This document shows, piece after piece, positions 7,773-28,866 of a stretch of 64,000 bases of DNA. Below the pieces are notes generated by a model, which was given only the letters and a program-made list of their open reading frames with translations, was not told the origin of the DNA and made no database searches. Position numbers and translations under genes: made by a program. The stretch spans positions 22,167 to 86,166 of the forward strand of contig JBMNGZ010000008.1 in NCBI GenBank assembly GCA_050950105.1. Direction: 5' to 3'. Each line of letters begins with the position of its first letter. Positions within the stretch are counted from its first letter, which is position 1. Source of the stretch: Candidatus Hydrogenedentales bacterium. Lineage in GTDB: Bacteria > Hydrogenedentota > Hydrogenedentia > Hydrogenedentales > SLHB01.

Positions 7773-9063
7773 ATGAAACGCGACACATCCGCGGCCCTCT
7801 GGCGCGAGGCAAACAAGATCTTAGTAGGCGGCGTCAACAGCCCGGTCCGGGCTTTTAGCGCGGTCGGCGGCGAACCGTTTTTTGCCGCCTCCGGACGCGG
7901 CTCCCGTATTCAGGACGTCGATGGCAACGAATACCTCGACTATGTCTTGTCCTGGGGCCCGCTGGTCATGGGACATGCCCATCCGGGCGTCGTTGAAGCC
8001 GTAAGCGCGGCCATGCGCCTCGGCTCCAGTTTCGGCATCTCAACCGAGGCCGAGATCCGTCTTGCACAGCGCATCACGCGCCATTTCCCGGCCATCGAGA
8101 AGCTCCGCTTCGTCAACAGCGGGACCGAAGCCGTCATGAGCGCCATCCGCCTCGCCCGCGGTGTCACCGGCGCCGAGCTGGTTGTCAAAATTGCCGGTTG
8201 TTACCACGGTCACATGGACGGGCTGCTCGTCCGTGCCGGGAGTGGACTGACCACCCTGGGTCAGCCGGACAGCCAGGGCGTGCCAAATGCCTACACCCAA
8301 TGCACCCTCGTGGTTCCCTACAACGACCTGGACGCCGTCCGCGACGCCTTTTCTGCCTACGCCGGGAAGATCGCCTGCCTGATCGTCGAGCCCGTAGCCG
8401 GAAACATGGGCGTTGTCCTGCCCGAACCCGGGTATCTGGAAGGATTGCGCCAGATCACCCAATCCGCCGGCGCCTTGCTCATTTTCGATGAAGTGATGAC
8501 GGGCTTCCGCGTCAGCATGGGAGGCGCACAGGCGCGCTACCAGGTTACGCCCGATCTGACCGTGCTCGGCAAGGTCATTGGCGGCGGCCTCCCCGTGGGC
8601 GCCTACGGCGGTAGCGCCCGGATCATGGACCAGCTTTCTCCGCTCGGCCCCGTCTACCAGGCGGGCACGCTATCGGGCAATCCCCTCGCCATGGCCGCGG
8701 GCCTCGCCACCCTCGACGCCCTCGAACAGCCGGGTGCTTTCGAACGCACACGGAACAGGCCATGACTCGCGCTGTCCGAGGGCCTGGGCGAGATCGCGCG
8801 CCAGCGCGGGCATCCCCGTCTACCAGACCCAGGCGGGCTCCATGGCCTGCCTCTTCTTCAGTGAAGGCCCCGTGCGCAACTACGAAGACGCCACCGCCTC
8901 GGATACCAAACGCTATGCCGCTTTCTTCCGGGGCATGCTCGAACGAGGCGTCTATTTCGCCCCGTCCCAGTTCGAGGCCTGCTTCACCAGCGCGGCCCAT
9001 TCCAGCGCCGACATCGATCGGACGCTCGAGGCTGCCAGCGAGACGTTTCGAGAATTGTCCTGA
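7773..9063 (+). CDS. hemL: glutamate-1-semialdehyde 2,1-aminomutase, disrupted by an in-frame TGA at 8763 plus a 1-nt frame change near 8810
   Basis: Residues 1-330 are typical HemL ([28 protein letters not shown], the PLP-lysine region [17 protein letters not shown]). The C-terminus ([27 protein letters not shown]...[21 protein letters not shown]) continues in frame +1 from 8812. In between, [15 protein letters not shown] is readable in frame 0 only after a TGA. Confidence 0.85.
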
Positions 9064-9475: not shown

Positions 9476-10330
9476 AAAACTCCACCCCCGAATCGGCTAT
9501 CGCCGATTCACCCCCGCCCGCGGGGGACAGGTGCGCTGCACATAAGTCTCTGGCCTTCAGGTTTTTGTGTCCCTCGCAGAAAAGGATGGATCAAAAGCCA
9601 AACCAAGCGCCGCGTGTGCCGGTTCCGGGTCTTGTGTCCCCCGCGGGCGGGGGTGGCCGCGAAGCGGCCGGGGGTGGATTGTGCGGGCAGACACACGAGT
9701 CTGCTCCTACGCGTTGCGGAGCATAGATAAACCAGGGAAGCTCCCGCGCTGCGGAAACCTGGATCGATCAGGACGGCTCCTGCGATTCCGTTCCGGAATG
9801 TAGGGGCGACCTCCTGGGCCGCCCATCCGGATCGCTCACGCACTTCGACGGGACGCTGTGAGCTGGAAGTCACACCCCAAAATCCAAGCTGCAAAACTCC
9901 ACCCCCAAATCGGCTATCGCCGATTCACCCCCGCCCGCGGAGGACAGGTGCCCTGGGAGCGCCGACGTCCTCGTCGGCACACGTTCACCTCCGCTCGCGG
10001 GGGACAAGTTGCGCTGCGTTTTGCCGAATGGGGTTACCCTGTTTTGACGGACACGTAGGGGTAGATGGAATGGAGCAAGGAGACCTGCGGCACATGGCTG
10101 CTAGTGAGCGCCGGCTACTGCAATCCGGCCGCAAAACTCCACCCCCAAATCGGCTATCGCCGATTCACCCCCGCCCGCGGGGGACAGGTGCGCTGGGAGC
10201 GCCGACGTCCTCGTCGGCACACGGTTCAGCCTCGCCAGCGGGGACAGCGCGCCGCGCCTGAATCGATCCATTTCCGGCTCTTGTGTCCCCCGCGGGCGGG
10301 GGTGGCCGCGAAGCGGCCGGGGGTGGACTC
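9476..10330. repeat. cluster of composite GC-rich palindromic (REP/BIME-like) repeats in a 1.66 kb non-coding gap
   Basis: Element A (aaaactccacccccRaatcggctatcgccgattcacccccgcccgcggRggacaggtgcSctg) occurs at 9476-9537, 9893-9955 and 10133-10195. Copies 2 and 3 extend with the hairpin gccgacgtcctcgtcggc and a partial re-iteration. Element B (cttgtgtcccccgcgggcgggggtggccgcgaagcggccgggggtgga) occurs at 9631-9678 and 10279-10326 and is an inverted relative of A. Each element is built from perfect stem-loops. Confidence 0.5.
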
Positions 10331-10945: not shown

Positions 10946-13111
10946 GTGAGAAAACACTTGTTGCGCCTGGCGTTCCCACTTGTGCTTTGCCCTCTCCTTG
11001 CTGCGCTTGGCTGCGCCACAGCGGGTGCGCCTGGCAGGCGCGGTGTCCAGACCTTTGAACCTGTTCCGCACGGGCGGGTAGGCCGCCAGGAGCTTCCCAG
11101 TCCTCCTGCGCAACGAGCCACCGACCTGCTTCGGGCCGCCGGTGACGCCTTCCGAAAAGCCAATGAAGCCCAGGAAAACGGCGAAGAACAGGCCGCCTTG
11201 CGCCATTACGCCAAGATGTTACAACTGCTGCAGGAGGCGGACCTCGACCCTGCGATCTTTTACAACCTCCGCCCCGAGTTTGAACGCATTCTTGCCCAGA
11301 CCGCCGCGCAAGCCGGGTTGATGGACAGCGAAGGCCACCTGGAACGGCTCACGCCCGAAGAGATGGCCGAGGCCGGCCTGGGTGGCGGCATCGAAATCCC
11401 GTTTCCACTGCCTGAACGGGTCCTGGCAGAGATCGAAGAGATTCAGCAGGTTTATGCGAAGAACTTCCAGTATGGGTTGAACCGAAGCGTCAAATACGAC
11501 CAGCATCTGCGCCGCGAACTCACGTTGGCCGGCTTGCCCGAAGATCTCGTCTGGCTGGCCATGGTCGAAAGCCAGTTTCATCCCACCGTCGTGTCCCATG
11601 CCGGCGCAGCCGGTATGTGGCAGTTCATGCCCGCGACCGGCCGCCGCTACAACCTCCGCATCACTTCCTACGTCGACGAGCGCTTCAACTGGCGCAAAGA
11701 AACCAATGCCGCTGTCGCTTACCTGACCGAACTGCGCGACTTTTTCGAGGGCGATTGGCCTCTCGCCGTTACCGCGTACAATATGGGCGAGAATGGGATG
11801 GAGCGCGTCATCGCCTTGAATGGGGGAGAACGCGATCTCTGGAAACTCCTGGAAACCTCCCCCGGTTGCGATCGCATGGCTCGTGAATCACAAAAGTTTT
11901 ATGCCAAGTTTCTCGCATCCATCATTGTGGGCAAAAATCCCGAGAAATATGGGTTCACCACCCCTTCCGGCACGGCTGAAGAAGCGGAATTCGTGCCTAT
12001 CGAAGGCAGCTACAGTCTGGCCTCACTGGAAAAGGCCGCCGGCTGGCCCGAAAGTACGCTGCGCGACTTGAACCGTGACCTCACGCGCGGGATCACGCCC
12101 CCCACCGGCGAACACATGCTCGTGGTCCCAAAACATGGGGCCAAAACGCTCCTTGCCGCACTGGAAAACGCGGCCAAAGTGCAGCCCAACGTCCATGTGG
12201 TGAAGCGGGGTGAAACCCCGGATGGCATTGCCAAACACTATGGCGTCTCCGTGCGCGAGTTGATGGCCGTCAACAAGGTCCGCTCTCCGCGCCATCTTCC
12301 GGTCGGGATGAGTCTCATGATCCCCGGTACCGGCAGCGTGCCGGCCCCGAACGCTCCGGCGGCTCCGGCCGTATCAGAAACCCGTGAGACGCACGCCGCA
12401 ACAACGTATCGCGTCAAAAAAGGCGATACGCTGTCCGGAATTGCCACCCGCTTCGGCGCTAAAGTCAGCGACATCCAAACCTGGAACAACATGGGCCGAA
12501 AGACCCGAATTCAGGTGGGCTCCACGCTGAAAGTCGCTCCGGCCGGCACGAAGGTTGCCTCGGCGCCTCAACCCCAGGCGGCCAAACCTGCCGCTGAAAC
12601 CCACACGCACGTCGTGCGGGCCGGCGAATATCCCGCCAAGATCGCCAAACAGTACGGCGTGGGCCTCGATGAATTCCTCGCCTGGAACGGCCTCAAAAAA
12701 GACACCATGATTCGCGTGGGCGACAAACTGCTGGTCCACGGAAAAGTAAAGACCGCCGCCGCATCCGCACCCAGCGAGCCCGCCAAAACCGTATACAAAG
12801 TGAAATCGGGCGATTCCGCCTCGGTCATTGCGGATAAGCACGGCGTGAAGCTCTCCGAACTCCTGAAGTGGAACAACCTTTCCCGCACCTCCACCCTCAA
12901 AGTGGGCAAGGAACTGGTCCTCTACAAACCCGGCGCCCCAAGCGCCCCCGCCAAGGAAGAAGTCGTCGTGCACCGCGTCGCAAAAGGCCAGAATCCCACG
13001 ACGATTGCGCGAAGATACGGTGTCTCCGTAGATGACCTTCTCCGTTGGAACGGCTGGGACAAAAACCGTGTCCTGCGCGTGGGTGACACGGTCACCATTC
13101 GCCCGAACTAA
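10946..13111 (+). CDS. membrane-bound lytic murein transglycosylase D-like protein with five C-terminal LysM domains (lipoprotein/secreted)
   Basis: The GTG start at 10946 gives the signal/lipobox sequence VRKHLLRLAFPLVLCPLLAALGCATAG. The SLT domain shows EDLVWLAMVESQFHPTVVSHAGAAGMWQFMPATGRRY. Five LysM repeats follow (e.g. HVVKRGETPDGIAKHYGVSVRELMAVN, YRVKKGDTLSGIATRFGAKVSDIQTWN). Confidence 0.75.
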   Translation: MRKHLLRLAFPLVLCPLLAALGCATAGAPGRRGVQTFEPVPHGRVGRQELPSPPAQRATDLLRAAGDAFRKANEAQENGEEQAALRHYAKMLQLLQEADLDPAIFYNLRPEFERILAQTAAQAGLMDSEGHLERLTPEEMAEAGLGGGIEIPFPLPERVLAEIEEIQQVYAKNFQYGLNRSVKYDQHLRRELTLAGLPEDLVWLAMVESQFHPTVVSHAGAAGMWQFMPATGRRYNLRITSYVDERFNWRKETNAAVAYLTELRDFFEGDWPLAVTAYNMGENGMERVIALNGGERDLWKLLETSPGCDRMARESQKFYAKFLASIIVGKNPEKYGFTTPSGTAEEAEFVPIEGSYSLASLEKAAGWPESTLRDLNRDLTRGITPPTGEHMLVVPKHGAKTLLAALENAAKVQPNVHVVKRGETPDGIAKHYGVSVRELMAVNKVRSPRHLPVGMSLMIPGTGSVPAPNAPAAPAVSETRETHAATTYRVKKGDTLSGIATRFGAKVSDIQTWNNMGRKTRIQVGSTLKVAPAGTKVASAPQPQAAKPAAETHTHVVRAGEYPAKIAKQYGVGLDEFLAWNGLKKDTMIRVGDKLLVHGKVKTAAASAPSEPAKTVYKVKSGDSASVIADKHGVKLSELLKWNNLSRTSTLKVGKELVLYKPGAPSAPAKEEVVVHRVAKGQNPTTIARRYGVSVDDLLRWNGWDKNRVLRVGDTVTIRPN

Positions 13112-15243: not shown

Positions 15244-15798
15244 ATGCGGATAATCGCTGGAAAAGCCAAAGGGATGCGGCTTTGTGCACCGAAAAGCCGG
15301 AATGTCCGGCCCACCTTGGATCGCGTGCGCGAAAGCCTGTTCAATATCCTCGGACCCCGGATTCCTCACTCCCGATTCCTGGATCTTTACGCCGGTTCCG
15401 GGGCGAACGGCATGGAGGCGCTCAGCCGTGGCGCTTCCCGTGCCGTTTTTGTCGACAAAGATATCCAGTATATCCGTTCCAACTTGCAAAAAACCCGGCT
15501 AGATTCCCTGGCTGCCTGCGTGCAGGCCAATCTCCCGGGCGGGCTTGAAAAACTCGAAAATCTCCCTCCTTTTGACCTCATTTTCGCTGATCCACCCTTC
15601 AACTTGGTGGATTTCGCCCCTCTCTTGACCCGAATCGCCCGGCACGCGCTTCTGGTGGCCGGCGGGATGATTGTGCTCGAACATGCATCGCGCCTCACGC
15701 TGGACGAGCGCATTGGACCCTTCCAGCGGGACCGCGTCCGCCTCTACGGCGAAACCCAGCTGTCCTTCTATCTTGACGCTCCCGCCCCAATTTGTTAA
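15244..15798 (+). CDS. rsmD: 16S rRNA (guanine966-N2)-methyltransferase
   Basis: Shows MRIIAGKAKG..., the SAM-binding region LDLYAGSGANGMEALSRGA, and the DPPF catalytic motif (IFADPPFN). Confidence 0.7.
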   Translation: MRIIAGKAKGMRLCAPKSRNVRPTLDRVRESLFNILGPRIPHSRFLDLYAGSGANGMEALSRGASRAVFVDKDIQYIRSNLQKTRLDSLAACVQANLPGGLEKLENLPPFDLIFADPPFNLVDFAPLLTRIARHALLVAGGMIVLEHASRLTLDERIGPFQRDRVRLYGETQLSFYLDAPAPIC

Positions 15799-15807
15799 AG
15801 TGCTCCC

Positions 15808-15822
15808 ACAACATATAGTTGT
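15808..15822. promoter_or_regulatory. NrdR-box-like palindrome ACAACATATAGTTGT upstream of nrdR
   Basis: A 15-bp palindrome (ACAAC-ATATA-GTTGT) lies 64 nt upstream of the nrdR ATG. It resembles the AT-centred NrdR operator consensus. Confidence 0.35.
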
Positions 15823-15885
15823 TGAGCGCCCGTAGTTGGAATCTCTTGTGGTAGCATTAAGGTAAGTACCGGAAGGCGAGCCCTC

Positions 15886-16335
15886 ATGCGTTGTCCATTC
15901 TGCAGTCACACCGAAGGCAAAGTCGTGGATTCCCGGTCATCCAAAGATGGCGATTCCATTCGTCGCAGGCGTGAGTGCCTCCGCTGTGGCCGCCGTTTCA
16001 CCACCTACGAACGCATCGAGGAAATCGCCCAGATGGTGATCAAAAAGGATGGGCGGCGCGAGGCCTTTGATCGCTGGAAAATCAAGAGCGGTATCCTCAA
16101 AGCCTGTGAAAAACGTCCCGTCAGCCTGGAACAGGTCGATTCCCTCATCGACAGCGTCGAGCGCGCGCTGTTCAATTCCTCCGACAACGAAATTTCCACG
16201 GAAGCCATCGGGGCCGCGGTCATGGACCGGCTCAAAGACATCGATCAGGTGGCGTACGTCCGTTTCGCTTCGGTCTACCGCCAGTTCAAAGACCTGAACG
16301 AATTCATGGACGAGTTGAAGGGGCTTCTCATCTGA
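15886..16335 (+). CDS. nrdR: transcriptional repressor NrdR (zinc ribbon + ATP-cone)
   Basis: Shows the N-terminal zinc ribbon [19 protein letters not shown]...[12 protein letters not shown] followed by an ATP-cone ([16 protein letters not shown]). Confidence 0.9.
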
Positions 16336-16477
16336 CCCTCTGCCTGCCGGCCCTGACCCCACGCCGGATTTGCCCTTGTGTCTCCGGTCAAAAGCCGCTA
16401 AACTGATGTCTTGCACGCCATTGCACTGTATCTGAACGCTGCGGGACATTGCCTGCGCCATTTCGCAACAGAAACTG

Positions 16478-18781
16478 ATGACGGATCCAGAAGAACACCT
16501 TGCCGAAGACAGCTTCCGGCCCCTGGAGGCGGCGCGCGAAGGCGCCTACGACGAGCAGCTGCGCTTTGATTCCCCGCTGATGCGCCCCTCGGCGCCCGTG
16601 CGCATGGTCATCAAACGCGATGGCCGCGAAGAGCCCTACGACAAAAACAAGATCGCTGCCGCGATCCTGCGGGCCGCAGACAGCGCCGGCGAGGGTGACC
16701 GCGATCGTGCCATGAGTCTCGCCTCCGGCGTGACCATTTTTCTCAGCAAACGCTTTGAGGGCCGGGCGCCCACGGTGGCTCAGGTTCAGGATGCGGTTGA
16801 GAAAGTTCTGCTGGAAATGGGCCATGCGCGAACCGCCCTGGCCTTTGCGCGCCACCGGCGCAAACGGACCCGCGTCACCCGGCTGCGCCAGGGCGACCTC
16901 CATCATCTGCTCGATGAATTCGATGAAGCTCAATGGGAGCAGCGGCTTCGCGATGAAACCCACCAGGGCGCCCTCTTTGTCCGGACCAGCAGCGAGACCC
17001 TCTCCGGGTGGGATCGCTCGCGCATCGTCGATGCGCTGGTGCGCGAAACCCGGCTCGACCGCGCACGTGCTGAATCCATCGCGCTGGAGGTCGAGGCACA
17101 AATCCTGTCGGCCGGGATCAGCCCTCTGACCACGGCCCTCGTGCGGGAACTCGTCGACGCCAAACTCGCCGAACGCGGTCTCGAAGAATTCCGCCGCCGC
17201 CATATGCGGATCGGCGTCCCTCTGTACGACGCAGAACGCATCATCTGCACACCGGGCGAAACCGAGCGGATGTGCCGCCAGGACCCGGAGACGACCGACC
17301 GCTTCCTCGCGCAGCGGGTGAAGCGTGAATATGCCCTTACGCAGGTATTCTCCGAGCGCATCGTCGATGCCCACGTTTTCGGCGACCTGCACCTCTGCGG
17401 CCTGGGCTATGTCGACCGCTTTCAGGGTTTTTCCGCACCCATCGACTTTCTCGTGCGCTACGGTGGCGGGCTCCCGGGCGTATCCCGCCAGGCCGCTCCG
17501 CCTCAAGACCTGGAAGGCTTGTTGGTGCAGCTGGGCCGATTCCGGACGCAGGTCGACGCCCATTTCGCCGGGCCGGTCACCTGGGACATGCCCCACGTGT
17601 ACCTCAGCCCATTCCTGGATAACGCAACTGCCCAAGAACGGCAGCGCGCAGCACAAATTCTGCTCTTTGTGCTCGGCACGGACGCCGCACAACGCGCGGC
17701 AAAACCAGAACTCACCCTGAGCTGGGACGTCCCCGCACGGCTGGCGCGCCGAAAAGCCGAGGGACCGGCCCACGCCGTCGACGGCCGGGTCTACGCGGAT
17801 TTCGAATCGCTCGCCCAAGAACTCATGGAAGACATTCTGGCCACCTACCTCCAGGCCAACACCACGAACCGGCCCCTGCTGAGGTTCGTCCTCGACCGTT
17901 CCACATTTGCCCGCCGCGGCTGCCGCAGCGTCCTCGTGCGTCTGGCCGAAACGGCCCTGGCCAGCGGACTCCTCGAGATTGAGTTTGACCGCCCCTGCGA
18001 CGATGCCGCGAGCCCGCCTCCCCGGGACGGCAGCCCTGTGGCTCATGTGGTCAATCTAAACCTGGCGCGTATGGCCTTTCGTTCCGCAGACGAAACGGCA
18101 CTGATGGAAAATCTCGACGCCCTGGTTGATCTGGCCGCACAGGCGCACCAGGAAAAGTGCGCGTTTTTTGAGCGGCTCGTTGCGCTGCGCGCGCTCGGTC
18201 CCTTCGTGTTCCTCGCGGAGACGCCCGCGCATCCGCCCCTGTTCGATATCTCCAAGGCGGTCTATACCATTGCCGTGGACGGGCTCAGCGAATGCGTCGA
18301 AGCGCTTTGTGGAGCAGGGCCGCAGCAGTCCGGCGATGCCCAGGCGCTGGCGCTGCGCGTGCTGACCCGCCTCGCGGAAGGATGCCGGATCGCAAGCGAC
18401 CGCACCGGCTTGCGCATCGTGCCCGCCCAGGCCCGGTATGAATCCTCGGTCCGCCGTTTCGCGGCGCTCGACCTCCGGCCCTTCCCCGAGGAGGCCCGGC
18501 GCGTTGCGAAGAGCGATCCCATCACCCAGGACATCCACTATACGGCGGGAGCCCGTGTCGCCCGAACTGCCACCTGCACTCCGAGCGAGCGTGCCCTGCT
18601 GGAAGGAGAATTGCAGGCGCTTGTGTCTGAAGGCGCTCTTTCCCGCATCGAATTACCCGACATGGAGACCAGTCCGGAGGCCGTCGCCAGTTTTATTGAG
18701 ATGACATGGCGCCGCACAAAAATACGCCACCTGCTCCTGGAACGTCGCGGCGCGCCCACCGGATACCTGGTATACGAATGA
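16478..18781 (+). CDS. ATP-cone domain protein, putative ribonucleotide-reductase-like (class III NrdD-like N-terminal region) lacking a recognizable glycyl-radical C-terminus
   Basis: It has an N-terminal ATP-cone (VRMVIKRDGREEPYDKNKIAAAILRA) and a second ATP-cone-like segment. A GDLHLCGLGY motif resembles the GxIHIHD region of NrdD. The C-terminal 100 aa contain no CxxC pairs or RVxGY motif. The gene lies directly downstream of nrdR. Confidence 0.4.
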   Translation: MTDPEEHLAEDSFRPLEAAREGAYDEQLRFDSPLMRPSAPVRMVIKRDGREEPYDKNKIAAAILRAADSAGEGDRDRAMSLASGVTIFLSKRFEGRAPTVAQVQDAVEKVLLEMGHARTALAFARHRRKRTRVTRLRQGDLHHLLDEFDEAQWEQRLRDETHQGALFVRTSSETLSGWDRSRIVDALVRETRLDRARAESIALEVEAQILSAGISPLTTALVRELVDAKLAERGLEEFRRRHMRIGVPLYDAERIICTPGETERMCRQDPETTDRFLAQRVKREYALTQVFSERIVDAHVFGDLHLCGLGYVDRFQGFSAPIDFLVRYGGGLPGVSRQAAPPQDLEGLLVQLGRFRTQVDAHFAGPVTWDMPHVYLSPFLDNATAQERQRAAQILLFVLGTDAAQRAAKPELTLSWDVPARLARRKAEGPAHAVDGRVYADFESLAQELMEDILATYLQANTTNRPLLRFVLDRSTFARRGCRSVLVRLAETALASGLLEIEFDRPCDDAASPPPRDGSPVAHVVNLNLARMAFRSADETALMENLDALVDLAAQAHQEKCAFFERLVALRALGPFVFLAETPAHPPLFDISKAVYTIAVDGLSECVEALCGAGPQQSGDAQALALRVLTRLAEGCRIASDRTGLRIVPAQARYESSVRRFAALDLRPFPEEARRVAKSDPITQDIHYTAGARVARTATCTPSERALLEGELQALVSEGALSRIELPDMETSPEAVASFIEMTWRRTKIRHLLLERRGAPTGYLVYE

Positions 18782-18877: not shown

Positions 18878-19828
18878 TCAGAAGCTGTTTTCTTTTGTAA
18901 AGGCGATGAGTTCGTCCAGGTTTGCGTAGGCCACGGCCAGCACGGTGTCCGCGGCGCCGTAATACAGCCTGAGCTGCCGCTGGCTGTCCACGAGGGCCGC
19001 GCACGGAAATACCACGCTCGGCACGTCGCCCACACGCTCGTAGGGTTCTGTAGGCGCCAGGAGGTAGGTGCGGGTGCGGTAGCGGACCTGCCACGGTTTT
19101 TCCAGGTCGAGAAGTGCCGCGCCCACACTGTAGACAAACCCGGAACAGCTGGTTCGCACACCGTGATAAATCAGCAGCCATCCCTCGTCCGTCTCGATCG
19201 GCACGGGGCCGGCCCCTACCTTCGTGCTCTGCCACCCGCCACGCGGGCCAAACACAAAGCGGTGGCGGCCCCAATGCACGAGATCCGGGCTCGTCGAGTA
19301 AAAGATATCGCCGTACGGCGTATGTCCGAGATCGCTGGGGCGGTGCAGCATGGCGTACATCCCGTCGATCTTTCGTGGGAAGAGGACGCCGTTGCGGTTC
19401 AAATAGGCCACATTCGCATCGATTAGTTCGAAGCGGTGAAAATCCTGAGTTTGGGCCAGGCCGATGGCCGGCGCCTGCCCGCCCTGCGGGGCGTCGGGGT
19501 AATGGCACCAGGTCACGTAGTAGAGGTTGTCAATCCGTGTAATCCGGGGGTCGTACTGGAAGCGGCCGTCGAAGTTTACGTCCGGTCCGTCCAGATCATT
19601 GCGTTCAAACAGAATGGGCGATGCCTCGATCTGCCAGGCCAGCCCGTCATTGCTGAACCCGGCATGCAGCCCGGCCTCCATCCGCTGGGAATCCACCCGG
19701 AACACGCCGGCAAATCCGGTTCCAAATGGTGCCACCGCGCTGTTGAAGATCGAGTTGGCGGTAGGTACTGCCGCGGGGGTGACGATAGGATTGTGCTCGT
19801 AGCGCCGAAACACGGTCTCGTTGGCCAT
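18878..19828 (-). CDS. glycoside hydrolase family 130 protein (beta-mannoside phosphorylase/glycosidase-related, DUF377)
   Basis: A 316-aa 5-bladed beta-propeller-type sequence (YYVTWCHYPD, GMYAMLHRP, DEGWLLIYHGV, LRLYYGAADTVLAVAY) typical of GH130 members. Confidence 0.7.
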   Translation of the reverse strand: MANETVFRRYEHNPIVTPAAVPTANSIFNSAVAPFGTGFAGVFRVDSQRMEAGLHAGFSNDGLAWQIEASPILFERNDLDGPDVNFDGRFQYDPRITRIDNLYYVTWCHYPDAPQGGQAPAIGLAQTQDFHRFELIDANVAYLNRNGVLFPRKIDGMYAMLHRPSDLGHTPYGDIFYSTSPDLVHWGRHRFVFGPRGGWQSTKVGAGPVPIETDEGWLLIYHGVRTSCSGFVYSVGAALLDLEKPWQVRYRTRTYLLAPTEPYERVGDVPSVVFPCAALVDSQRQLRLYYGAADTVLAVAYANLDELIAFTKENSF

Positions 19829-21753: not shown

Positions 21754-23820
21754 CTACGCGCCCAGCAACTCTTCTTCGCCGCCCAGGCCGATGCTCATCT
21801 CTACGGATTCCGGCTGGCCGGTCTGCCTGTGCCGAGGCAGCGAGATCTTGAATGTTGTGCCTGTCTGCCCCTTGGCCGGGTCTGAATTCGATTCCACGCG
21901 GATGTCTCCATGGTGCATTTTGACGATGCCGTAGGTCACCGCCAAGCCCAATCCTGTGCCAACACCGAGTTGTTTCGTCGTGAAAAAGGGGTCGAAAATC
22001 CGCGAGAGGTTCTCTTTTTTGATGCCCGTGCCTGTATCGACGATCTGCAGCATAATCCGGTCTGCTTCGTCCGTCAGCCGAACCGTCAGCACTCCGCCGT
22101 CGGGCATCGCCGCGAGGGCATTGCCAACCAGATTGGCCAGCACCTGCGTCATTTGATCGCGATCGATATCCGCCATGGGGACGCTCATTTCGTTCTCAAA
22201 CCGGACTCGTACGTTCTCGGGCACCGTGTTCGCTCGGAGCACGTGCTCGAGCATGTCCCCAACGTCGACAGACTCGAAAAGGACCTTGTTCTGTCGCGCA
22301 AAGTGCAAGAGCCCCGCCACGATCTTCTTGCAGCGGTCGGCATGCTCCGAGATCATCTGGAGGTCTTCCAGCATTTGGACATTCCCGCCGAACTCATCCT
22401 TGATGATGTGGGCGTACATCAGCACGATGCCCAGCGGGTTGTTCAATTCGTGTGCGATGCCCGCGGCCAACTGGCCCATGCTCGCCAGCTTTTCCGACTG
22501 CACCAGGGCCGACCGCGCTTCCGCGAGCTGCTCGTTCGACTGATTGAGATCCTGGATGGTCGTCGCCAGCAGCTCGATCGTGTGCGGGAGGCACATCGCG
22601 GTTTCCGCCAGCCCTTTGTAGATCGCAATGGCATGTTCGCGGCAGGTCTCGTATCCGCAGGCGCCGCAATTGAGCTCGTCGCCCGGTAAAAACTTGCCCA
22701 TCCGCTCCATCAGCTCGCGGATCTGACCCTCCGACGGCACCGCGATCCGCTGATCGTCCGGCCGGTACGTCCGGCTCAAGTCCAGCGTGCTGAATTCCTG
22801 CATCGCGTCCGCCCACTCCGCCTCGGCGGCGTTTTTCATGCGGCGGCGCACATACGAGCTTACCCGGCAGCGCCGGACGTATTGCGGGTCCTGGTTCGTC
22901 GTCCCCGGCCCCATGATGCAGCCTTTGCAGGCGAGGGTTTCCAGCAGACGCACCTCAAAAAATCCCGCTGCAAACTCGCTGATCGCTTCAGGAAAATCGA
23001 CGCGACCATCCGCCACCGCCACATTGCCGTCAACGAGGTCCTCGACAATGTTAGCCGCCTGCAGAAGGCCCCGGCTGACCGGGAACAGACCGCCGTAGCG
23101 CGCGTGTGGCGGGTCAAAATTGCTCGCATCGACCGATTCCGGCGTGATGTTTCGCGCCGCCAGCAGCGCCTGCAATTCGGCGAAAGTCAGGACGCTCTGT
23201 ACGTCATCGGGCAGCTCGTCGCTCGCGGCCTCGCCTTTCTTCGCGATGCAGGGGCCGATGAACACAATCTTCAACCCCGGTCCATGCTGCTTATGCAGCA
23301 CGCGCGCCATCGCCACCATCGGCGACACGATGGGCGCCAGCGATGTGACCAAGTCCGGCTGGTAGCGCTGCACGTACGCCACAATGGACGGGCAGGTCGT
23401 TGCCACAAAGCGCTTATCCTGCGTCGTTTCGATCAGCTTTCGGTATTGATCCGCCACAAGATCGGCGCCAAAGGCCACCTCGTGGACATAATCGAAGCCA
23501 AGCGCGCGCAACATGCCCACGACGCGCTCGTACTCGCAATCATCGAATTCCACTGGAAAGCTCGGTGCGAGCAGCGCCGCCACCTTAGCTTCTCCGGCCA
23601 GCAGCGCCTCGACCTCCGCCTTGGAATCCCAGACGCGTTTCGCGCCCTGGCTGCACACGCGAACACAGTTGCCGCAACCAATGCACCGGCTGCAGATCAC
23701 ATCCGCCTGACCGTCCACGATGCGGATGGCTTTCGCGGGACATTCCCGCACGCAGGTGAAACAGACGCGGCACCGTTCTTTAATGGTGGTGACCAGCGGT
23801 ATGTTGGATGCGCTTTTCAT
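21754..23820 (-). CDS. [FeFe]-hydrogenase-like sensory protein: 2x[4Fe-4S] ferredoxin + H-cluster domain + extra Cys motif fused to a HisKA/HATPase_c histidine kinase
   Basis: The N-terminus has CRVCFTCVRECP and CSRCIGCGNCVRVC. The H-domain has L2 (GPCIAKKGE) and L3 (ETLACKGCIMGPG), but L1 reads ATTCPSI instead of TSCCPxW. An extra CGACGYETC...C motif follows. The kinase part has the H-box IAHELNNPLG, N-box LVGNALAAM, and G-boxes DTGTGI and GLGLAV. Confidence 0.7.
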   Translation of the reverse strand: MKSASNIPLVTTIKERCRVCFTCVRECPAKAIRIVDGQADVICSRCIGCGNCVRVCSQGAKRVWDSKAEVEALLAGEAKVAALLAPSFPVEFDDCEYERVVGMLRALGFDYVHEVAFGADLVADQYRKLIETTQDKRFVATTCPSIVAYVQRYQPDLVTSLAPIVSPMVAMARVLHKQHGPGLKIVFIGPCIAKKGEAASDELPDDVQSVLTFAELQALLAARNITPESVDASNFDPPHARYGGLFPVSRGLLQAANIVEDLVDGNVAVADGRVDFPEAISEFAAGFFEVRLLETLACKGCIMGPGTTNQDPQYVRRCRVSSYVRRRMKNAAEAEWADAMQEFSTLDLSRTYRPDDQRIAVPSEGQIRELMERMGKFLPGDELNCGACGYETCREHAIAIYKGLAETAMCLPHTIELLATTIQDLNQSNEQLAEARSALVQSEKLASMGQLAAGIAHELNNPLGIVLMYAHIIKDEFGGNVQMLEDLQMISEHADRCKKIVAGLLHFARQNKVLFESVDVGDMLEHVLRANTVPENVRVRFENEMSVPMADIDRDQMTQVLANLVGNALAAMPDGGVLTVRLTDEADRIMLQIVDTGTGIKKENLSRIFDPFFTTKQLGVGTGLGLAVTYGIVKMHHGDIRVESNSDPAKGQTGTTFKISLPRHRQTGQPESVEMSIGLGGEEELLGA

Positions 23821-23828
23821 ACTTGACC

Positions 23829-25550
23829 TCAGATCATAACCTCGCGTTTGGCGTAGTGTGTGTGGAGCAGTTGGTGGCTCTTTTCGCCGAGCGGCTCGCC
23901 CAGAAACTCTTCGTAGAGCCGTTGGATCGCCGGATTTCCGTGCGAGGTGCGCACGGGCTCGTCCCGGTCGATCGTATACAGCGCCTGCATCCGCGCCCGG
24001 ATGGCGTCCGGGTCTGCGTTGAGCGGTTGCCCGCCGCCCGCGATGCAGCCGCCGGGGCAGGTCATCACTTCGATGAAATGAATGTCGTCGCGCCCGTTGC
24101 GAATTTCTTCCAGCAAGAGCCGCGCGTTCTGCAGGCCACTGACTACCGCTACGCCAATCGGGATGCCGTTAATCTCAAGTTTGGCCTCTTTGCGCCCCTC
24201 GAACCCTCGGATCGCTTCCACTTTGAGGCCGGGCAGTTCCTCGCCGGTCAGCAGGTAGTGTGCCGTGCGGATCGCCGCTTCCATCACCCCGCCGCTCGCG
24301 CCGAAAATCTTGCCCGCCGTGCTGCGCTCGCCAAACGGCGTATCGGCGTGTTCGGGGGCCAGCGATTGCATGTCCATGCCGCGCATGCGTATGACCCGCG
24401 CCAGTTCCCGCGTGGTCAGGACCGCGTCGACATCGGGCCTGCCGTCCCGGGAATGTTCCGGCCGTCCCGCTTCGAATTTCTTGGCCACACAGGGCATGAT
24501 CGCCACACTGAAGATATCCTCTGGAGCGATACCTTCCCGCTCCGCGAAAAACGACTTGATCACCGCTCCCATCATCTGCTGCGGGCTCTTGCAGGTCGAG
24601 AGGTTGTCGATCATTTCCGGGTAGAACTCTTCCACAAATTTGATCCAGCCCGGCGAACAACTGGTCATCATGGGAAGTTTTCCGCCGGTGCGGATGCGAT
24701 GAGCCAGTTCCGAGGCCTCTTCCATGATCGTCAGGTCCGCCGAAAACGACGTGTCGAACACCTGGTCAAAACCGAGTCTGCGCAACGCCGCCACCAGCAT
24801 GCCGTCTACGTCCGCGCCCGGTTTCAGACCGAATTCCTCGCCCAGGGTCACCGACACGCTCGGCGCGTGCTGCACCACCACGAGCTTCGTGGGGTCTGCG
24901 ATGGCATTCAGCACTTCCTTGATATAACTCTGCTCGCGCAGCGCGCCTGTCGGGCACACCATGATGCACTGGCCGCAGTTGATGCAGCTCGAAACGTTGA
25001 GCCCTTCGCTGAACGCCGTTCCGATCACGGTCTGGCTGCCGCGGCCCACAAAATCGATGGCCGAGACTCCCTGCACTTCCTCACACACGCGCACGCATTT
25101 CCCGCAGAGGATGCATTTGGCGGGCTCGCGTACGATGGCGGGGTTCGACGAATCCACATGGTATTCATTCTTGCCGCCCGAGTAGCGCCGTTCACGCACG
25201 CCCAGCTCATTGGCCAGACCCTGCAGGTCGCAATGGCCGCTGCGCACGCAATACAGGCAATCGTCGGGGTGGTTCGCGAGCAGCAGCTCGATGATCGTCT
25301 TGCGCGCTCGCAACGCCCGGGGCGAATGCGTCTGGACCCGCATCCCGTCCCGTACCGGGTAGGCGCAGCTCGGCACCAGCGCCCGCTCGCCCTCCACCTC
25401 AACCGCGCACATGCGGCAGGCGCCCGTCGGGAACAGGTTGTCCATGTTACACAAGGTCGGCACCGTAATGCCGTTCCGTTTCAGCGCATCCAGCAGCATC
25501 TCGCCGCTTTTCGCCTCAATCTTCCGGTTATTGACTTCGATGCTAAGCAT
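23829..25550 (-). CDS. hydA: [FeFe]-hydrogenase catalytic subunit HydA (NuoG-like N-terminal FeS domains + H-cluster domain)
   Basis: The start is at MLSIEVNN (GAGGAA Shine-Dalgarno; the upstream in-frame ATG at 25577 overlaps the hydB stop region). It has a 2Fe-2S site (CNMDNLFPTGACRMC), a His-ligated cluster (HPDDCLYCVRSGHC) and 2x CxxCxxCxxxCP motifs. H-cluster motifs L2 (MPCVAKKFE) and L3 (EVMTCPGGCIAGGGQP) are canonical, while L1 is MMTSCSPGW (a Ser where the second Cys is expected). Confidence 0.85.
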   Translation of the reverse strand: MLSIEVNNRKIEAKSGEMLLDALKRNGITVPTLCNMDNLFPTGACRMCAVEVEGERALVPSCAYPVRDGMRVQTHSPRALRARKTIIELLLANHPDDCLYCVRSGHCDLQGLANELGVRERRYSGGKNEYHVDSSNPAIVREPAKCILCGKCVRVCEEVQGVSAIDFVGRGSQTVIGTAFSEGLNVSSCINCGQCIMVCPTGALREQSYIKEVLNAIADPTKLVVVQHAPSVSVTLGEEFGLKPGADVDGMLVAALRRLGFDQVFDTSFSADLTIMEEASELAHRIRTGGKLPMMTSCSPGWIKFVEEFYPEMIDNLSTCKSPQQMMGAVIKSFFAEREGIAPEDIFSVAIMPCVAKKFEAGRPEHSRDGRPDVDAVLTTRELARVIRMRGMDMQSLAPEHADTPFGERSTAGKIFGASGGVMEAAIRTAHYLLTGEELPGLKVEAIRGFEGRKEAKLEINGIPIGVAVVSGLQNARLLLEEIRNGRDDIHFIEVMTCPGGCIAGGGQPLNADPDAIRARMQALYTIDRDEPVRTSHGNPAIQRLYEEFLGEPLGEKSHQLLHTHYAKREVMI

Positions 25551-25580
25551 TGCCGTTCCTCGTTCGAGCGCGTCCACGCG

Positions 25581-27656
25581 CTATTGTTTGCCCATGCGGT
25601 AAAGCGCCGCGCCTTCATGCCAGTCTTCGAAAGCGTCCGATGCAAACACGCTCAAGGCCTGCTCACTCTCGCGGCGTTCACGGTCGATCTCTTCCGCGCC
25701 CGGAATCCGAAGCCGTGCGGCGTGTATCGGGCACACGTCCACACAGGTCCCGCAACCGATGCACTTGTCCTCAATGATGTAATGCACTTTTTTCGGCACG
25801 CCCACGATCGCCCCGTCCACGGGGCAACGCTGCGCGCAGAGGGTGCAGCCGTCGCACAATTCCACGTCGATCTCGAAGGAGCGCAGCTCCTGGCAGACCC
25901 CCGCGGGGCAGCGCCGCTCGTAGATGTGGGCCTCATATTCGTCGCGGAACCAGTGCAGTGTGCTCAATACCGGGTTCGGGGCCGTCTGGCCCAGGCCGCA
26001 GAGGCTCGTGTCGCGAATGACCTCGGCCGTCCGATTGAGCATCATGACGCCTTTGAAGCGTTCGAGCGCCTGGAATTTCGATTCGCTTTTGCGGCCCCGC
26101 GTGATGCGTTCGAGTATCTGGAGCATACGCAGCGTGCCTTCCCGGCAGGGGATGCATTTTCCGCAGCTTTCCCGCTGGATGAACTCCATGAAGAACTTGG
26201 CCACGTCGACCATGCACGTGTCTTCGTCCATCACGACCAGGCCGCCGGAACCCATCATCGCGCCCACGGTCTTCAGCGATTCGTAATCGATGGCGATGTC
26301 CAGATGCTGGTCGGGGATGCACCCGCCGGAGGGACCGCCGATCTGCACCGCCTTGAATTTCTTTCCGCCCGGGATCCCGCCGCCGATATCAAACAAGACC
26401 TGGCGCAGCCGGGTGCCCATCGCCACTTCGACCAGGCCGGTCAGCGCGATCTTGCCGGAGAGCGCAAACACCTTGGTGCCTTTGCTCGTCTCCGTGCCTA
26501 TCGCCGCGAACGCTTCCGCTCCTTTTTCCGCAATCCGCGGGACATTCGCCAGGGTCTCCACGTTGTTGATGATCGTCGGTTTATCAAAGAGGCCCCGGAC
26601 GGCCGGAAACGGCGGGCGGGGACGAGGCATGCCCCGTTTCCCTTCGATGCTGTTGATCAATGCGGTCTCTTCGCCGCATACGAAGGCGCCCGCGCCCATC
26701 TTGATCACGATCTCGAGGCTGAACCCGCTGTCCTGAACGTTGTCGCCGAGGAAACCGCAGTCTTTCGCCTCGGCAATGGCGTGCTGGAGCCGTTTGATGG
26801 CCAGCGGATACTCGGCCCGGATATAAATGTAAGCCTTGCTTGCGCCGATGGCGTACGCCGCAATGGCCATGCCTTCCAAGAGCCGGTGCGGGTCGCCTTC
26901 AATCACCGCCCGGTCCATGAACGCACCCGGATCGCCTTCGTCCGCGTTGCAGACCAGATACTTGCGGTCGCTGGTCGTGCTCAGCGCGAATTTCCATTTT
27001 TTGCCCGCTGGAAACCCGCCGCCGCCCCGGCCGCGCAGCCCGCTCTGTTCAACCAGGTCGCAGACCTCGGCCGGCGTCATGGTATGAATGACTTTCGTCA
27101 GAGCCCGGTAGCCGCCGCTCGCGACATATTCTCCCAGACTCGATGGATTGATGATCCCGCAGTTCTTCAGCACCCAGCGCGTCTGCGGCGCGAAGAAAGG
27201 ATGTTCCGAAAGCCGGTCAACGTTATGCCAGGGCGCCACGCCCGGCGTGGTGAACTGGCCCAATACCATGTCCGTGGGGATCGTCTCCGACAGCACGCTT
27301 TCCAGTAAAGGCTTGACCTTGTCTTCCGTCACGTGTTTGAACGAGACGCGCGGCTTGCCCGGCAGCTGAATGTCCACCAGGGGCTCTTCGGCGCACAACC
27401 CGATGCACCCCACTTCGACAATCTCGGCGTCAATGTTGCGCAGGCGCAAGAACGCCCGGATCGCATTGAGCGACTTGCCTGCGCCCGCGCCCAGGCCACA
27501 GGTGCCCGCGCCCACGTAGATCGTCGGGCGCTCCGTCCGTTCGCGGCGCAGCAGCCGCAGTTGTTCTTCATAGTCCGCACGCACGGCCTCATCGAGGTCC
27601 GGCGTGAGACCGCATGCATAGTTTAATAAACCGTTCAGGCTGGCCGGCGGTTTCAT
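25581..27656 (-). CDS. hydB: NADH-binding hydrogenase subunit HydB (NuoF-like flavoprotein with thioredoxin-like [2Fe-2S] and C-terminal 2x[4Fe-4S])
   Basis: The start at ATG 27656 is preceded by AAGGAAA, which overlaps the hydC stop. It has the NADH/FMN motifs GRGGGGFPAGKKW and ESCGKCIPCREG, and the C-terminal clusters CDGCTLCAQRCP and CIGCGTCVDVCP. Confidence 0.9.
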   Translation of the reverse strand: MKPPASLNGLLNYACGLTPDLDEAVRADYEEQLRLLRRERTERPTIYVGAGTCGLGAGAGKSLNAIRAFLRLRNIDAEIVEVGCIGLCAEEPLVDIQLPGKPRVSFKHVTEDKVKPLLESVLSETIPTDMVLGQFTTPGVAPWHNVDRLSEHPFFAPQTRWVLKNCGIINPSSLGEYVASGGYRALTKVIHTMTPAEVCDLVEQSGLRGRGGGGFPAGKKWKFALSTTSDRKYLVCNADEGDPGAFMDRAVIEGDPHRLLEGMAIAAYAIGASKAYIYIRAEYPLAIKRLQHAIAEAKDCGFLGDNVQDSGFSLEIVIKMGAGAFVCGEETALINSIEGKRGMPRPRPPFPAVRGLFDKPTIINNVETLANVPRIAEKGAEAFAAIGTETSKGTKVFALSGKIALTGLVEVAMGTRLRQVLFDIGGGIPGGKKFKAVQIGGPSGGCIPDQHLDIAIDYESLKTVGAMMGSGGLVVMDEDTCMVDVAKFFMEFIQRESCGKCIPCREGTLRMLQILERITRGRKSESKFQALERFKGVMMLNRTAEVIRDTSLCGLGQTAPNPVLSTLHWFRDEYEAHIYERRCPAGVCQELRSFEIDVELCDGCTLCAQRCPVDGAIVGVPKKVHYIIEDKCIGCGTCVDVCPIHAARLRIPGAEEIDRERRESEQALSVFASDAFEDWHEGAALYRMGKQ

Positions 27657-27669
27657 CGCTGTGGTTTCC

Positions 27670-28170
27670 TTATTCATCGGTTTCGACCTCTTCGCGGAGT
27701 TCATCCAAAATGTCACGGACCTTTTGAGGGGTCAGATTTGCGTAAAACTCGCCGTTGATGCTGATCACGGGCGCCAGACCGCAGGCGCCGATGCATGCCA
27801 CAACTTCCAGGCTGAACAGGCCGTCGCGCGTCGTTTTGCCGGGTTCAAGCGCCAGATCCTGCCGGATCGCGTCCAGGACCCCCAGCGAGCCCTTTACGTG
27901 GCACGCCGTGCCACGGCAGACTTGAATGTGATAACGCCCGAGCGGCTGAAAACGGAACTGGTTATAGAAGGTCGCCACACCGTAGATCTTGCTTGCCGGA
28001 AGCTGAAGATGTTCGCCGATACGCGCGATCGCTTCCCGTGACAGGTAGCCGTGTGTCTCCTGAACGTCCTGAAGCAGGGGGATCAGGGCATCTCGCCCCG
28101 CACCCGCGTGCCGCTCAAGAATCTCCCCAATATCCGGCTGCACGGCCGGCTGTCCCGTAATGGTGCTCAT
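27670..28170 (-). CDS. hydC: hydrogenase [2Fe-2S] subunit HydC (NuoE-like)
   Basis: Shows CRGTACHVKGS...CIGACGLAPV, a thioredoxin-like 2Fe-2S ferredoxin signature. It overlaps the rex stop by 4 nt. Confidence 0.85.
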   Translation of the reverse strand: MSTITGQPAVQPDIGEILERHAGAGRDALIPLLQDVQETHGYLSREAIARIGEHLQLPASKIYGVATFYNQFRFQPLGRYHIQVCRGTACHVKGSLGVLDAIRQDLALEPGKTTRDGLFSLEVVACIGACGLAPVISINGEFYANLTPQKVRDILDELREEVETDE

Positions 28171-28805
28171 GACATGGTTTCCTTCTGCGACGCCCGAAGG
28201 CCCGCAAAAAACGCGACCTTCTCCAGCGCCATACTCAAATCCAGGTTCTCAATGTATACATGCGGCGGAACCCAGAGGTGCGTGGGGGCAAAATTCAGCA
28301 GGCCCGACACCCCCGCACGGCAAAGACGCCGCGCGGTGTCCTGGGCCACGGCCGACGGCACTGCGATGATGCCCACCCGGATCCCTTCCGATTCCACAAC
28401 CTCTTCCAACTGCGGCATCGGATAACACCGGCACCCGTGAATCACCCGGTTCACTTTCGTCTTGTCGTTGTCGAAAGCCGCGACCAGAGGGATACGCGGA
28501 TTGCGCCGCGGCGAAAACGCCATCAGCGCGCGACCCAGGTTGCCGATGCCCACCAACGCCACTTTCTGCGCGTCGGAATGAAACAAAAAGTCGTTGATGC
28601 TTCCCGCCAGAGCCGCTACGTCGTAGCCGCGAACCGGGCTCCCGGTGTAGCCCGTGGCCATCACGTCCCGACGGACCTGCGCCGCCGTGCATCCCGACCG
28701 CGCGGCCAGCTCATGTGAAAACACATGCTGCTGCCCGGCGTCCTGCATCGCCAGCAGGACCCGCCGGTACACACTGAGCCGGGCCACGGTTTTATCGGAA
28801 ATCAC
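28167..28805 (-). CDS. rex: redox-sensing transcriptional repressor Rex
   Basis: The N-terminal winged helix (TVARLSVYRRVLL) and a Rossmann-type NADH-binding domain (VALVGIGNLGRALM) are present. I place the start at GTG 28805 (GAGGAA Shine-Dalgarno 5 nt upstream) rather than ATG 28844, because ATG 28844 lies inside a Rex operator. Confidence 0.8.
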   Translation of the reverse strand: MISDKTVARLSVYRRVLLAMQDAGQQHVFSHELAARSGCTAAQVRRDVMATGYTGSPVRGYDVAALAGSINDFLFHSDAQKVALVGIGNLGRALMAFSPRRNPRIPLVAAFDNDKTKVNRVIHGCRCYPMPQLEEVVESEGIRVGIIAVPSAVAQDTARRLCRAGVSGLLNFAPTHLWVPPHVYIENLDLSMALEKVAFFAGLRASQKETMS

Positions 28806-28833
28806 GGCAATTCCTCGCGGTTTACGGTAGAAC

Positions 28834-28866
28834 TGTGAAGACATTCACGCTGTGATTCGTTTCACA
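28834..28866. promoter_or_regulatory. two tandem Rex operator sites (TGTGAAGACATTCACG and TGTGATTCGTTTCACA)
   Basis: Both match the TTGTGAA-N4-TTCACAA Rex consensus (the second with one mismatch). They are separated by 1 nt and sit 30-60 nt upstream of the proposed rex GTG start, at the head of the rex-hydCBA-sensor operon. Confidence 0.6.

Follow-up and report, generated by a model that had tools for sequence, protein, structure and literature searches.

The gene at positions 16478..18781 (+) of contig stretch JBMNGZ010000008.1 (assembly GCA_050950105.1, Candidatus Hydrogenedentales bacterium; the 64,000-nt stretch is called here the window, and this gene and its product the window gene and window protein) encodes a relative of NrdD, the class III anaerobic ribonucleotide reductase (RNR), that has lost its catalytic apparatus. 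The protein is probably a non-catalytic, NrdD-derived pseudoenzyme sensing ATP/dATP (probability about 0.6). That it is not an RNR but is functional is very probable, while the specific ATP/dATP sensor mechanism, proposed from sequence features, is put forward tentatively, at somewhat less than even odds. The initial annotation had suggested an RNR-like protein, divergent or non-radical, or else a regulatory paralogue, and this suggestion is supported by the NrdD core, the missing C-terminus, the lost cysteines and purifying selection.

The open reading frame (ORF) of 767 aa was recovered exactly as initially annotated. The content of GC at the third codon position is 0.74, as in other coding regions of the window. 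The gene and its domains, with AlphaFold2 (AF2) confidence given as the predicted local distance difference test (pLDDT) and selection as the ratio of non-synonymous to synonymous substitution rates (dN/dS), are as follows.

16478..18781, + strand: putative NrdD-like pseudoenzyme gene, ATG start, 767 aa
16535..16591, + strand: family-specific motif R-E-G-x-[FY]-D-x-Q-L-x-[FL]..P..P, residues 20-38, AF2 pLDDT below 50
16604..16870, + strand: ATP-cone 1, residues 43-131, Pfam PF03477 at 85 bits, dN/dS 0.03-0.07
16976..17197, + strand: ATP-cone 2, degenerate, residues 167-240, VRTS in place of KRDG, ATP-cone at 24.9 bits, dN/dS 0.03-0.09
17270..18745, + strand: predicted NrdD alpha/beta barrel, residues 265-756, from Pfam NRDD, AF2 (pLDDT mostly above 85) and Foldseek

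In the profile search, Pfam NRDD matched at 131 bits (cut-off 26 bits), residues 265-750 of the window protein corresponding to positions 5-500 of the 562 positions of the profile; positions 501-562, which cover the zinc ribbon and the glycyl radical loop, have no counterpart, and no glycyl-radical part was matched. The N-terminal ATP-cone that had been proposed is present, its best-matching stretch being cone 1, and is most similar to the ATP-cones of the NrdD chains of P. copri and S. thermophilus. The second cone-like segment proved to be a real ATP-cone, but a degenerate one, with a match (E 3e-5) slightly below the 25.8-bit cut-off. No alignment between cones 1 and 2 was obtained by internal BLASTP; cone 2 is confirmed by the profile match. 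A second cone, at 34.5 bits, was also found in the canonical relative at locus L037. The sequence GDLHLCGLGY (residues 302-311), noted earlier as reminiscent of a conserved class III motif, aligns with canonical G-D-I-H-L-H-D-L-G, that is, with the HxHD triphosphate motif.

The AF2 model of the window protein, built from 63 family sequences, has a mean pLDDT of 81.9, with low values confined to residues 1-36, 157-175, 263-265 and the C-terminal six. The best Foldseek matches in the PDB were all NrdD structures (P. copri, S. thermophilus, T. maritima and phage T4); matches to 8P2C, 9D3X, 4COI and 1H78 had E-values of 1e-21 to 1e-15 and target-normalised template-modelling scores of 0.54-0.71, and class I R1 proteins ranked far behind. 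The family profile matched NrdD structures at E 4e-29. Scores against the NCBIfam equivalog models of NrdD were all below their cut-offs (122.6 against 548, 109.7 against 326, 85 against 657 and 75 against 764). The core of the window protein is thus unambiguously assigned, by sequence and predicted fold, to the 10-stranded alpha/beta barrel of class III RNR and not to an unrelated family, and therefore the RNR link stands.

Contigs of NCBI, ENA and Logan assemblies, 17 in all, encode a protein identical to that of the window. The protein search returned 627 relatives, the best 120 of which were examined: all contain ATP-cone and NRDD domains at 38-84% identity to the window protein, nearly all have 730-830 aa, with a few shorter ones listed as partial, and the C-terminal end point, right after the last barrel strand, is identical in all 120. 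The named organisms among these are mostly Candidatus Hydrogenedentes/Hydrogenedentota metagenome-assembled genomes, and the proteins carry the NCBI/JGI labels 'anaerobic ribonucleoside-triphosphate reductase' or 'hypothetical protein'. Scanning of the GTDB species representatives revealed a relative in at least 572 genomes, from which 80 loci were kept. The truncated (dead) type is present in 43 of the 80; the remaining loci belong to WOR-3, Stahlbacteria, Eisenbacteria, Ratteibacteria, TA06 and Omnitrophota, with 32-35% identity to the window protein and the same two-cone architecture. Complete NrdD with DRPYCSGQS, ISECCRLSFKL, TLNLPR, CxxC...CxxC and ITRVTGYFS is encoded in 23 of these loci of other phyla. 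In one of these proteins, L037, which can be aligned over its full length with T. maritima NrdD (PDB 4COI), the cysteines coincide with T. maritima Cys125 and Cys329/330, the HLHD with the triphosphate motif and the glycine with Gly621. No canonical NrdD was found in the Hydrogenedentota-labelled loci among the 80.

The family and canonical groups were compared in an alignment of 156 distinct family sequences, most of them from Hydrogenedentota metagenome-assembled genomes, with 38 canonical relatives, in which a column was counted as kept when conserved in at least 80% of the family and as lost when conserved in less than 20%. Of 299 columns invariant in the canonical group, 92 are kept and 101 are lost in the family, and the lost columns read as a list of the catalytic apparatus. 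The corresponding sites of the window gene, located by alignment, are listed below.

17255..17278, + strand: lost NxN flap site, here GETERMCR (canonical N-x-E-N-A-N-I-P)
17390..17401, + strand: degenerate triphosphate motif, HLCG in place of HxHD
17414..17434, + strand: lost beta-A cysteine site, DRFQGFS (canonical DRPYCSG)
17672..17710, + strand: loop 2 remnant, here LGTDAAQRAAKPE (canonical YSQQSVARGGQAIFSD)
17984..18046, + strand: finger-loop remnant FDR...H (canonical FDRGETAKISECCRLSFKLEQSD), lacking some 18 residues, among them the Cys-Cys (thiyl) motif
18050..18070, + strand: retained VNLNLAR (canonical TLNLPR), with N528 invariant
18695..18781, + strand: C-terminus, comprising the last barrel strand HLLLE, a 12-residue tail and the stop codon, without zinc ribbon and glycyl radical loop

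The NxN flap over the substrate is among the most conserved NrdD motifs (PMC11226230); N-A-N is present in 100% of the canonical group, and the same columns are variable or gapped (41-43% gaps) in the family. The HxHD motif, which binds the triphosphate in NrdD (PMC4493059), is partly kept, with H305 in 88%, H307 in 81% and D308 in 40% of the family. The beta-A cysteine (T. maritima Cys125, T4 Cys79), which according to PMC4493059 is shared by every known RNR, is present in 100% of canonical and 0% of family sequences, being replaced by serine (51%), glycine (19%) or alanine (12%), and by Gly317 in the window protein. Loop 2, YSQQSVARGGQAIFSD in the canonical group, is variable in the family, in which the equivalents of T. 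maritima R221, Q224 and Y227, residues contacting the substrate base (PMC4493059), are not conserved. The SECCRLSFKL columns of the finger loop are gaps in 98-99% of the 156 family sequences, the span from R505 to N528 measuring 23 residues in the window protein versus 41 in L037, and equivalents of the thiyl cysteine (T. maritima Cys329/330, T4 Cys290) are absent from the family finger loop. The phosphate-binding EQTPAES helix N-terminus is lost, YYTNST of the canonical group is changed to x-Y-T-P-G-A, and the four columns of zinc-ribbon cysteines are gaps in 80-100% of family sequences.

The absence of CxxC...CxxC and RVxGY from the C-terminus, reported initially for the window protein, holds for the whole family, and the loss is wider than had been recognised, the beta-A cysteine, the Cys-Cys of the finger loop, the NxN flap and loop 2 being gone as well. 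No alternative glycyl-radical motif is present. The 'TGY' in the tail ...GAPTGYLVYE was considered as a cryptic glycyl radical site and rejected, being not conserved and located about 9 residues after the last strand; the closest relatives have AGLL, SGLL, SGLF or QSLF at this position, and most family members end 8-12 residues earlier. Cys507 (RPC) was likewise rejected as a relocated thiyl cysteine, being not conserved even in the 84%-identical relative. Two canonical glycyl-radical C-termini compared by tblastn with all frames of the 64-kb window gave chance matches only (E > 1). The earlier remark that there is no room for a missing domain is borne out, with just 96 nt separating the stop codon from the convergent GH130 gene and no glycyl-radical remnant in any frame. 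Of the eight testable features of an active class III RNR, seven are missing and the barrel alone is present, and the window protein is therefore not classed as an NrdD enzyme. With no radical store, relay cysteine, reducing cysteine or substrate-closing elements, the protein is shown by sequence comparison to be incapable of the RNR reaction as known.

The gene is maintained by purifying selection, most strongly in the nucleotide-sensing N-terminal module, which comprises the canonical cone 1, the degenerate cone 2, the linker helices and the N-terminal peptide. Nei-Gojobori dN/dS of the window gene is 0.12 and 0.11 against the 84%- and 73%-identical relatives, respectively, and 0.16 between these two relatives; by region, the values are 0.03-0.09 in the cones and 0.09-0.19 in the barrel. 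The window gene is separated from its counterpart on contig CAZHFY010000014.1 by 14 nucleotide substitutions, all of them synonymous, and uninterrupted ORFs of about 760 aa are present in dozens of genomes at about 40% identity. Mean column conservation in the family is 0.74 in cone 1, 0.71 in cone 2 and 0.51-0.52 in the barrel. The signature of cone 1 (K46, R47, K58, I59, D105, E108, R127, R130) is 94-100% conserved, with K46, R47 and E108 at 100% and K58, I59 and R127 at 98%. Since the catalytic residues are lost and purifying selection and wide conservation are retained, the protein fits the definition of a pseudoenzyme, an inactive homologue maintained by selection. The N-terminal motif EGxFDxQLxF, which is absent from the canonical relatives and predicted to be disordered, has E21, G22, D25 and Q27 conserved in 98-99% of the 156 family sequences and looks like a docking peptide. 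Its QLSF core loosely resembles the bacterial beta-clamp motif QL[SD]LF, a likeness mentioned here as speculation.

The nrdR gene reported directly upstream is present, in the arrangement given below.

15773..15801, + strand: predicted sigma-70-type nrdR promoter from a consensus scan, TTGACG, 17-nt spacer, TAAAGT, with TG
15808..15822, + strand: NrdR-box-like palindrome ACAACATATAGTTGT just past the promoter, read from the sequence, with a presumed function
15842..15854, + strand: putative second, half-degenerate box TCTCTTGTGGTAG, about 32 bp from the first
15886..16335, + strand: nrdR, 149 aa, repressor with zinc ribbon and ATP-cone (TIGR00244 at 208 bits, Zn_ribbon_NrdR, ATP-cone)
16336..16477, + strand: 142-nt spacer between nrdR and the NrdD-like gene, with no promoter or terminator predicted
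18878..19828, - strand: convergent GH130 gene (Pfam Glyco_hydro_130 at 210 bits), context only, downstream limit

The gene nrdR directly precedes the NrdD or NrdD-like gene, in the same orientation, in 14 of 20 canonical loci; the corresponding counts are 4 of 11 for the truncated 'zinc-ribbon only' loci and 8 of 36 for the family loci. The linkage seen in the window is interpreted as synteny inherited from canonical nrdR-nrdD operons. Since this adjacency is kept in just 8 of the 36 family loci, it is weak evidence of function when taken alone; elsewhere in Hydrogenedentota the NrdD-like gene stands alone, in unrelated contexts. The gene order SLT/LysM, PilT-like ATPase, RsmD, nrdR is conserved across Hydrogenedentota.

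The arrangement TTGAC-N17-TAnAGT also occurs upstream of nrdR in other Hydrogenedentota loci. The palindrome, conserved phylum-wide upstream of nrdR as CACAAyATrTAGTTGT, resembles the canonical box GCTCTATATATAGTGT upstream of nrdR-nrdD in WOR-3 relatives, and the nrdR leaders of Hydrogenedentota also share the element (T)CTTGTGGTG. Promoter and boxes are shared by the leaders of the window and of loci L006, L009, L014, L021, L026, L072 and L088-L090. The spacing of about 32 bp fits, as we presume, tandem NrdR boxes, and the two leader elements are probably such boxes, serving autoregulation. Co-transcription of the NrdD-like gene with nrdR under NrdR control is plausible in the window lineage because no promoter or terminator is predicted in the spacer.

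On established knowledge, a free-living bacterium would be expected to have an RNR, and the high conservation of NrdR (80-100% identity across Hydrogenedentota) would imply that it has RNR targets. In searches by phmmer with E. coli NrdA, NrdB, NrdD and NrdG against the ORFs of 85 loci and the window, only NrdD relatives were found, and no NrdG activase was detected in the 64-kb window or the family loci; nrdR neighbourhoods on contigs of 1.6 Mb, 0.8 Mb and 32 kb contained no RNR.

The sensor reading may be set out as follows. The ancestor would have been a class III RNR of the double-cysteine type, with two ATP-cones, encoded in an nrdR-nrdD operon. Cone 1 would bind ATP or dATP, and the bound nucleotide would change the conformation or oligomeric state of the protein, as in active NrdD and NrdR; oligomeric switching driven by the ATP-cone is described for NrdD (PMC11226230) and for NrdR (PMC9110341). 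The barrel would survive as a folded scaffold, and the disordered N-terminal peptide, the dead barrel or both would pass the state of the cone to a partner, candidates being the real RNR of the organism, NrdR or another component of dNTP (deoxyribonucleoside triphosphate) supply or replication. Since the glycyl radical domain and the flap, the targets of the cone in active NrdD (PMC11226230), are both gone, the output must be new; it could run through the conserved N-terminal peptide or through the surface that the barrel has retained.

Several observations weigh against this reading. No bona fide RNR was seen in the window, in the 20-kb neighbourhoods of family genes and nrdR or within 10 kb beyond the left edge. 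A core of the NrdR box was found within 350 bp upstream of 1 of 41 family genes without adjacent nrdR (background 0.07), and membership of the NrdR regulon is therefore not general in the family. Clustering of neighbouring genes revealed no recurrent partner besides nrdR and generic families. In addition, the former active-site residues H305, H307, N528, R531, E605, R660, D665 and Y688 are still conserved, which could mean residual ligand binding or a new activity of the barrel.

The last point leads to an enzyme whose barrel would have acquired a new, non-radical activity on a nucleotide or other ligand, with the cones as allosteric switch. Such neofunctionalisation would account for the pocket residues kept in the family (H299, G302, N528, R660, D665 and Y688 at 100%, E605 at 93%, H305 at 88%, H307 at 81%), for newly conserved family-specific residues (C606, 94%; G691, 98%) and for purifying selection on the barrel (dN/dS 0.15-0.19). 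It is nevertheless unlikely, as the elements holding the substrate are degenerate or gone (NxN flap, loop 2, the N-terminus of the TPAES helix and D308, the window having HLCG), no new cluster of catalytic-type residues is evident in the barrel, and the barrel is clearly less constrained than the cones. A permanent non-catalytic regulatory or structural subunit in a hetero-oligomer with an active RNR or NrdR, rather than a free sensor, overlaps with the preferred explanation. Class III RNRs are dimers with a single active monomer at any moment, and they form tetramers through the cones (PMC11226230); helices of the dimer interface are partly conserved in the family (LLAQ..F..L..HF, W369). However, neither a canonical NrdD in the Hydrogenedentota-labelled loci among the 80 kept nor a conserved adjacent partner gene was found, and a permanent subunit of this kind is considered quite improbable.

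An RNR that receives its radical in trans, for example from a stand-alone glycyl-radical protein, is brought to mind by relatives from Ratteibacteria, TA06 and Omnitrophota, in which the glycyl-radical motif is encoded by a separate ORF of about 100 aa just past a truncated nrdD, and by locus L018, in which a radical SAM activase-like gene overlaps the stop codon of the family gene. The split relatives, however, keep the beta-A cysteine, the Cys-Cys finger loop and the zinc ribbon, none of which is left in the dead family; no glycyl-radical peptide or NrdG was found in the window or other family loci; and the L018 activase is a single case with a ferredoxin insert, unlike the NrdG type (PMC13450708). 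A thiyl cysteine is needed by every RNR characterised so far (PMC4493059; PMC8463856), and activity in trans, which the lack of these cysteines already contradicts, is highly improbable. Equally little credence is given to a decaying pseudogene or a mis-assembled, truncated gene without function. Many catalytic motifs are indeed lost, and in-frame stops occur in the glycyl-radical region of some Eisenbacteria relatives, but dN/dS is 0.11-0.16, synonymous changes outnumber non-synonymous ones 14 to 0, the identical protein on 17 contigs comes from independent assemblies, and ORFs of about 760 aa are intact at 40% identity across the phylum, with invariant motifs and a family-wide C-terminal end point. 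The pseudogene explanation is already refuted because the analysis of selection shows purifying selection. A role in a defence system was also considered and rejected, none of the PADLOC anti-phage defence models matching the gene (0 families).

The non-catalytic sensor derived from NrdD thus remains the preferred reading. A bolder version of it, which is doubtful, would make the family the first RNR pseudoenzyme known from cells: an ATP/dATP sensor of NrdD descent, present across the phylum, whose freed cones regulate dNTP supply or replication via the N-terminal docking peptide. NrdR, the organism's own RNR and a replisome component are conceivable targets. The literature searched, which included an analysis of RNR insertions and extensions, the T. 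maritima NrdD paper and a 2026 review of glycyl-radical enzymes, with most subscription journals lying outside it, describes neither a class III RNR devoid of the glycyl radical domain nor an RNR pseudoenzyme from bacteria.

ATP-cones are known as switches on active RNRs or in NrdR. A dead RNR barrel under selection, carrying two cones and a docking peptide, points to a level of nucleotide sensing not described so far. Where metabolic reconstructions of Hydrogenedentota rely on the dead homologues for anaerobic dNTP synthesis, they are probably wrong. The window protein is oxygen-insensitive by construction and could suit radical-free study of the communication between cone and barrel in class III enzymes.

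Several forms of nrdD were observed among the relatives. A naturally split gene is present in five loci, from Ratteibacteria, TA06, Omnitrophota and others (L036:3254-3550, L038:~12360-12692, also L063, L066 and L081). Its core, which includes the cysteines and the zinc ribbon, breaks off ahead of the glycyl loop, and a separate ORF of about 98-110 aa, 20-50 nt downstream, carries VEWISRVTGYFSKINSWNKGKK, corresponding to Pfam NRDD positions 531-560/562; in L063, L066 and L081 the glycyl motif is located 220-300 nt past the nrdD stop. An intron between the truncated nrdD and the glycyl segment was rejected, no Rfam match being found and the segment lying in a separate ORF. By its sequence, the small ORF resembles a GrcA-like stand-alone glycyl radical subunit for RNR, and no description of a split class III RNR with a stand-alone glycyl-radical ORF was found in the literature searched. 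Eisenbacteria-type nrdD genes, otherwise canonical, stop at or after the RVTGY codons (for example GITKVTS*FSRISGWNSGKK) or retain a decayed remnant (L058:~2498-2620, L040:~12275-12406, L062, L075 and L084), which could reflect recent domain loss, recoding or sequencing error. In L018:10046-10990, the gene overlapping the stop codon of the dead NrdD homologue encodes a 314-aa radical SAM activase-type protein with a ferredoxin-like two-cluster insert; NrdG-type activases lack such an insert (PMC13450708). No glycyl radical enzyme gene is located near this activase, which was seen in a single locus.

The canonical, split, decaying and dead forms can be read as steps by which a glycyl-radical enzyme is taken apart, and the graded series in neighbouring lineages offers a rare view of such an enzyme dismantled and reused. 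If the bolder version of the sensor reading is true, the series would document a stepwise conversion of a radical enzyme into a regulator.

Other features of the window were also recorded. The gene hemL, encoding glutamate-1-semialdehyde aminomutase (7773-9063), is broken into two frames by small indels at 8743-8804 and is intact, with 428 aa, in the near-identical contig L001, relative to which the intergenic region 9478-10228 contains about 480 bp of extra or divergent DNA; both differences may be due to assembly error or strain variation. The gene at 21754-23820 (-) encodes a 688-aa fusion of a [FeFe]-hydrogenase-like Fe-S domain with a histidine kinase (HisKA, HATPase), which by its domains looks like a hydrogenase-type sensor kinase; it adjoins genes of a HydA/HydB/HydC-like electron-bifurcating hydrogenase (23829-28844, -) and of a Rex-like regulator. 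The hydrogenase gene cluster marks the organism as an anaerobe or fermenter. An 839-aa ORF at 52328-54847 (+), with a third-position GC content of 0.73, has no Pfam match at E <= 1e-5, and no tRNA or tmRNA genes were found in the 64-kb window by ARAGORN.

Among known systems, the double-cysteine type of NrdD, represented by T. maritima NrdD (4COI/4U3E) and by uncharacterised proteins of WOR-3, Stahlbacteria and Eisenbacteria (such as L037), shares with the window family the barrel fold (32-35% identity to WOR-3), the domain order of ATP-cone, degenerate cone and barrel, the position of nrdR upstream, and the motifs HxRLGVPLYD, AH..GD.H, NLPR, GLNE, R..A.LD and YT. In contrast to it, the window family lacks the glycyl loop, the zinc ribbon, about 18 finger-loop residues with Cys-Cys, the beta-A cysteine, the NxN flap, the loop 2 residues and TPAES, and has gained the N-terminal EGxFDxQLxF peptide. 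NrdD of P. copri (8P23 and others) and S. thermophilus (9D3X) has an N-terminal ATP-cone of the same family and the same barrel. Binding of ATP or dATP in the cone alters the oligomeric state and order of these enzymes (PMC11226230). Since their cone works through the glycyl radical domain and the NxN flap, neither of which is left here, the cone of the window protein must act on something else.

The closest system in function may be NrdR, likewise a non-catalytic RNR-type ATP-cone sensor of ATP/dATP, encoded immediately upstream and probably on the same transcript; NrdR has a DNA-binding zinc ribbon and no barrel, whereas the window protein has no recognisable DNA-binding domain. In concept, the closest analogues may be the inactive R1 homologues of betaherpesviruses. 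M45 of murine cytomegalovirus and UL45 of human cytomegalovirus are homologues of the RNR large subunit without catalytic residues, kept for a non-enzymatic role. These are class Ia R1 homologues of eukaryotic viruses, acting in cell-death signalling, whereas the window protein is a class III homologue encoded on a bacterial chromosome that keeps its allosteric cones.

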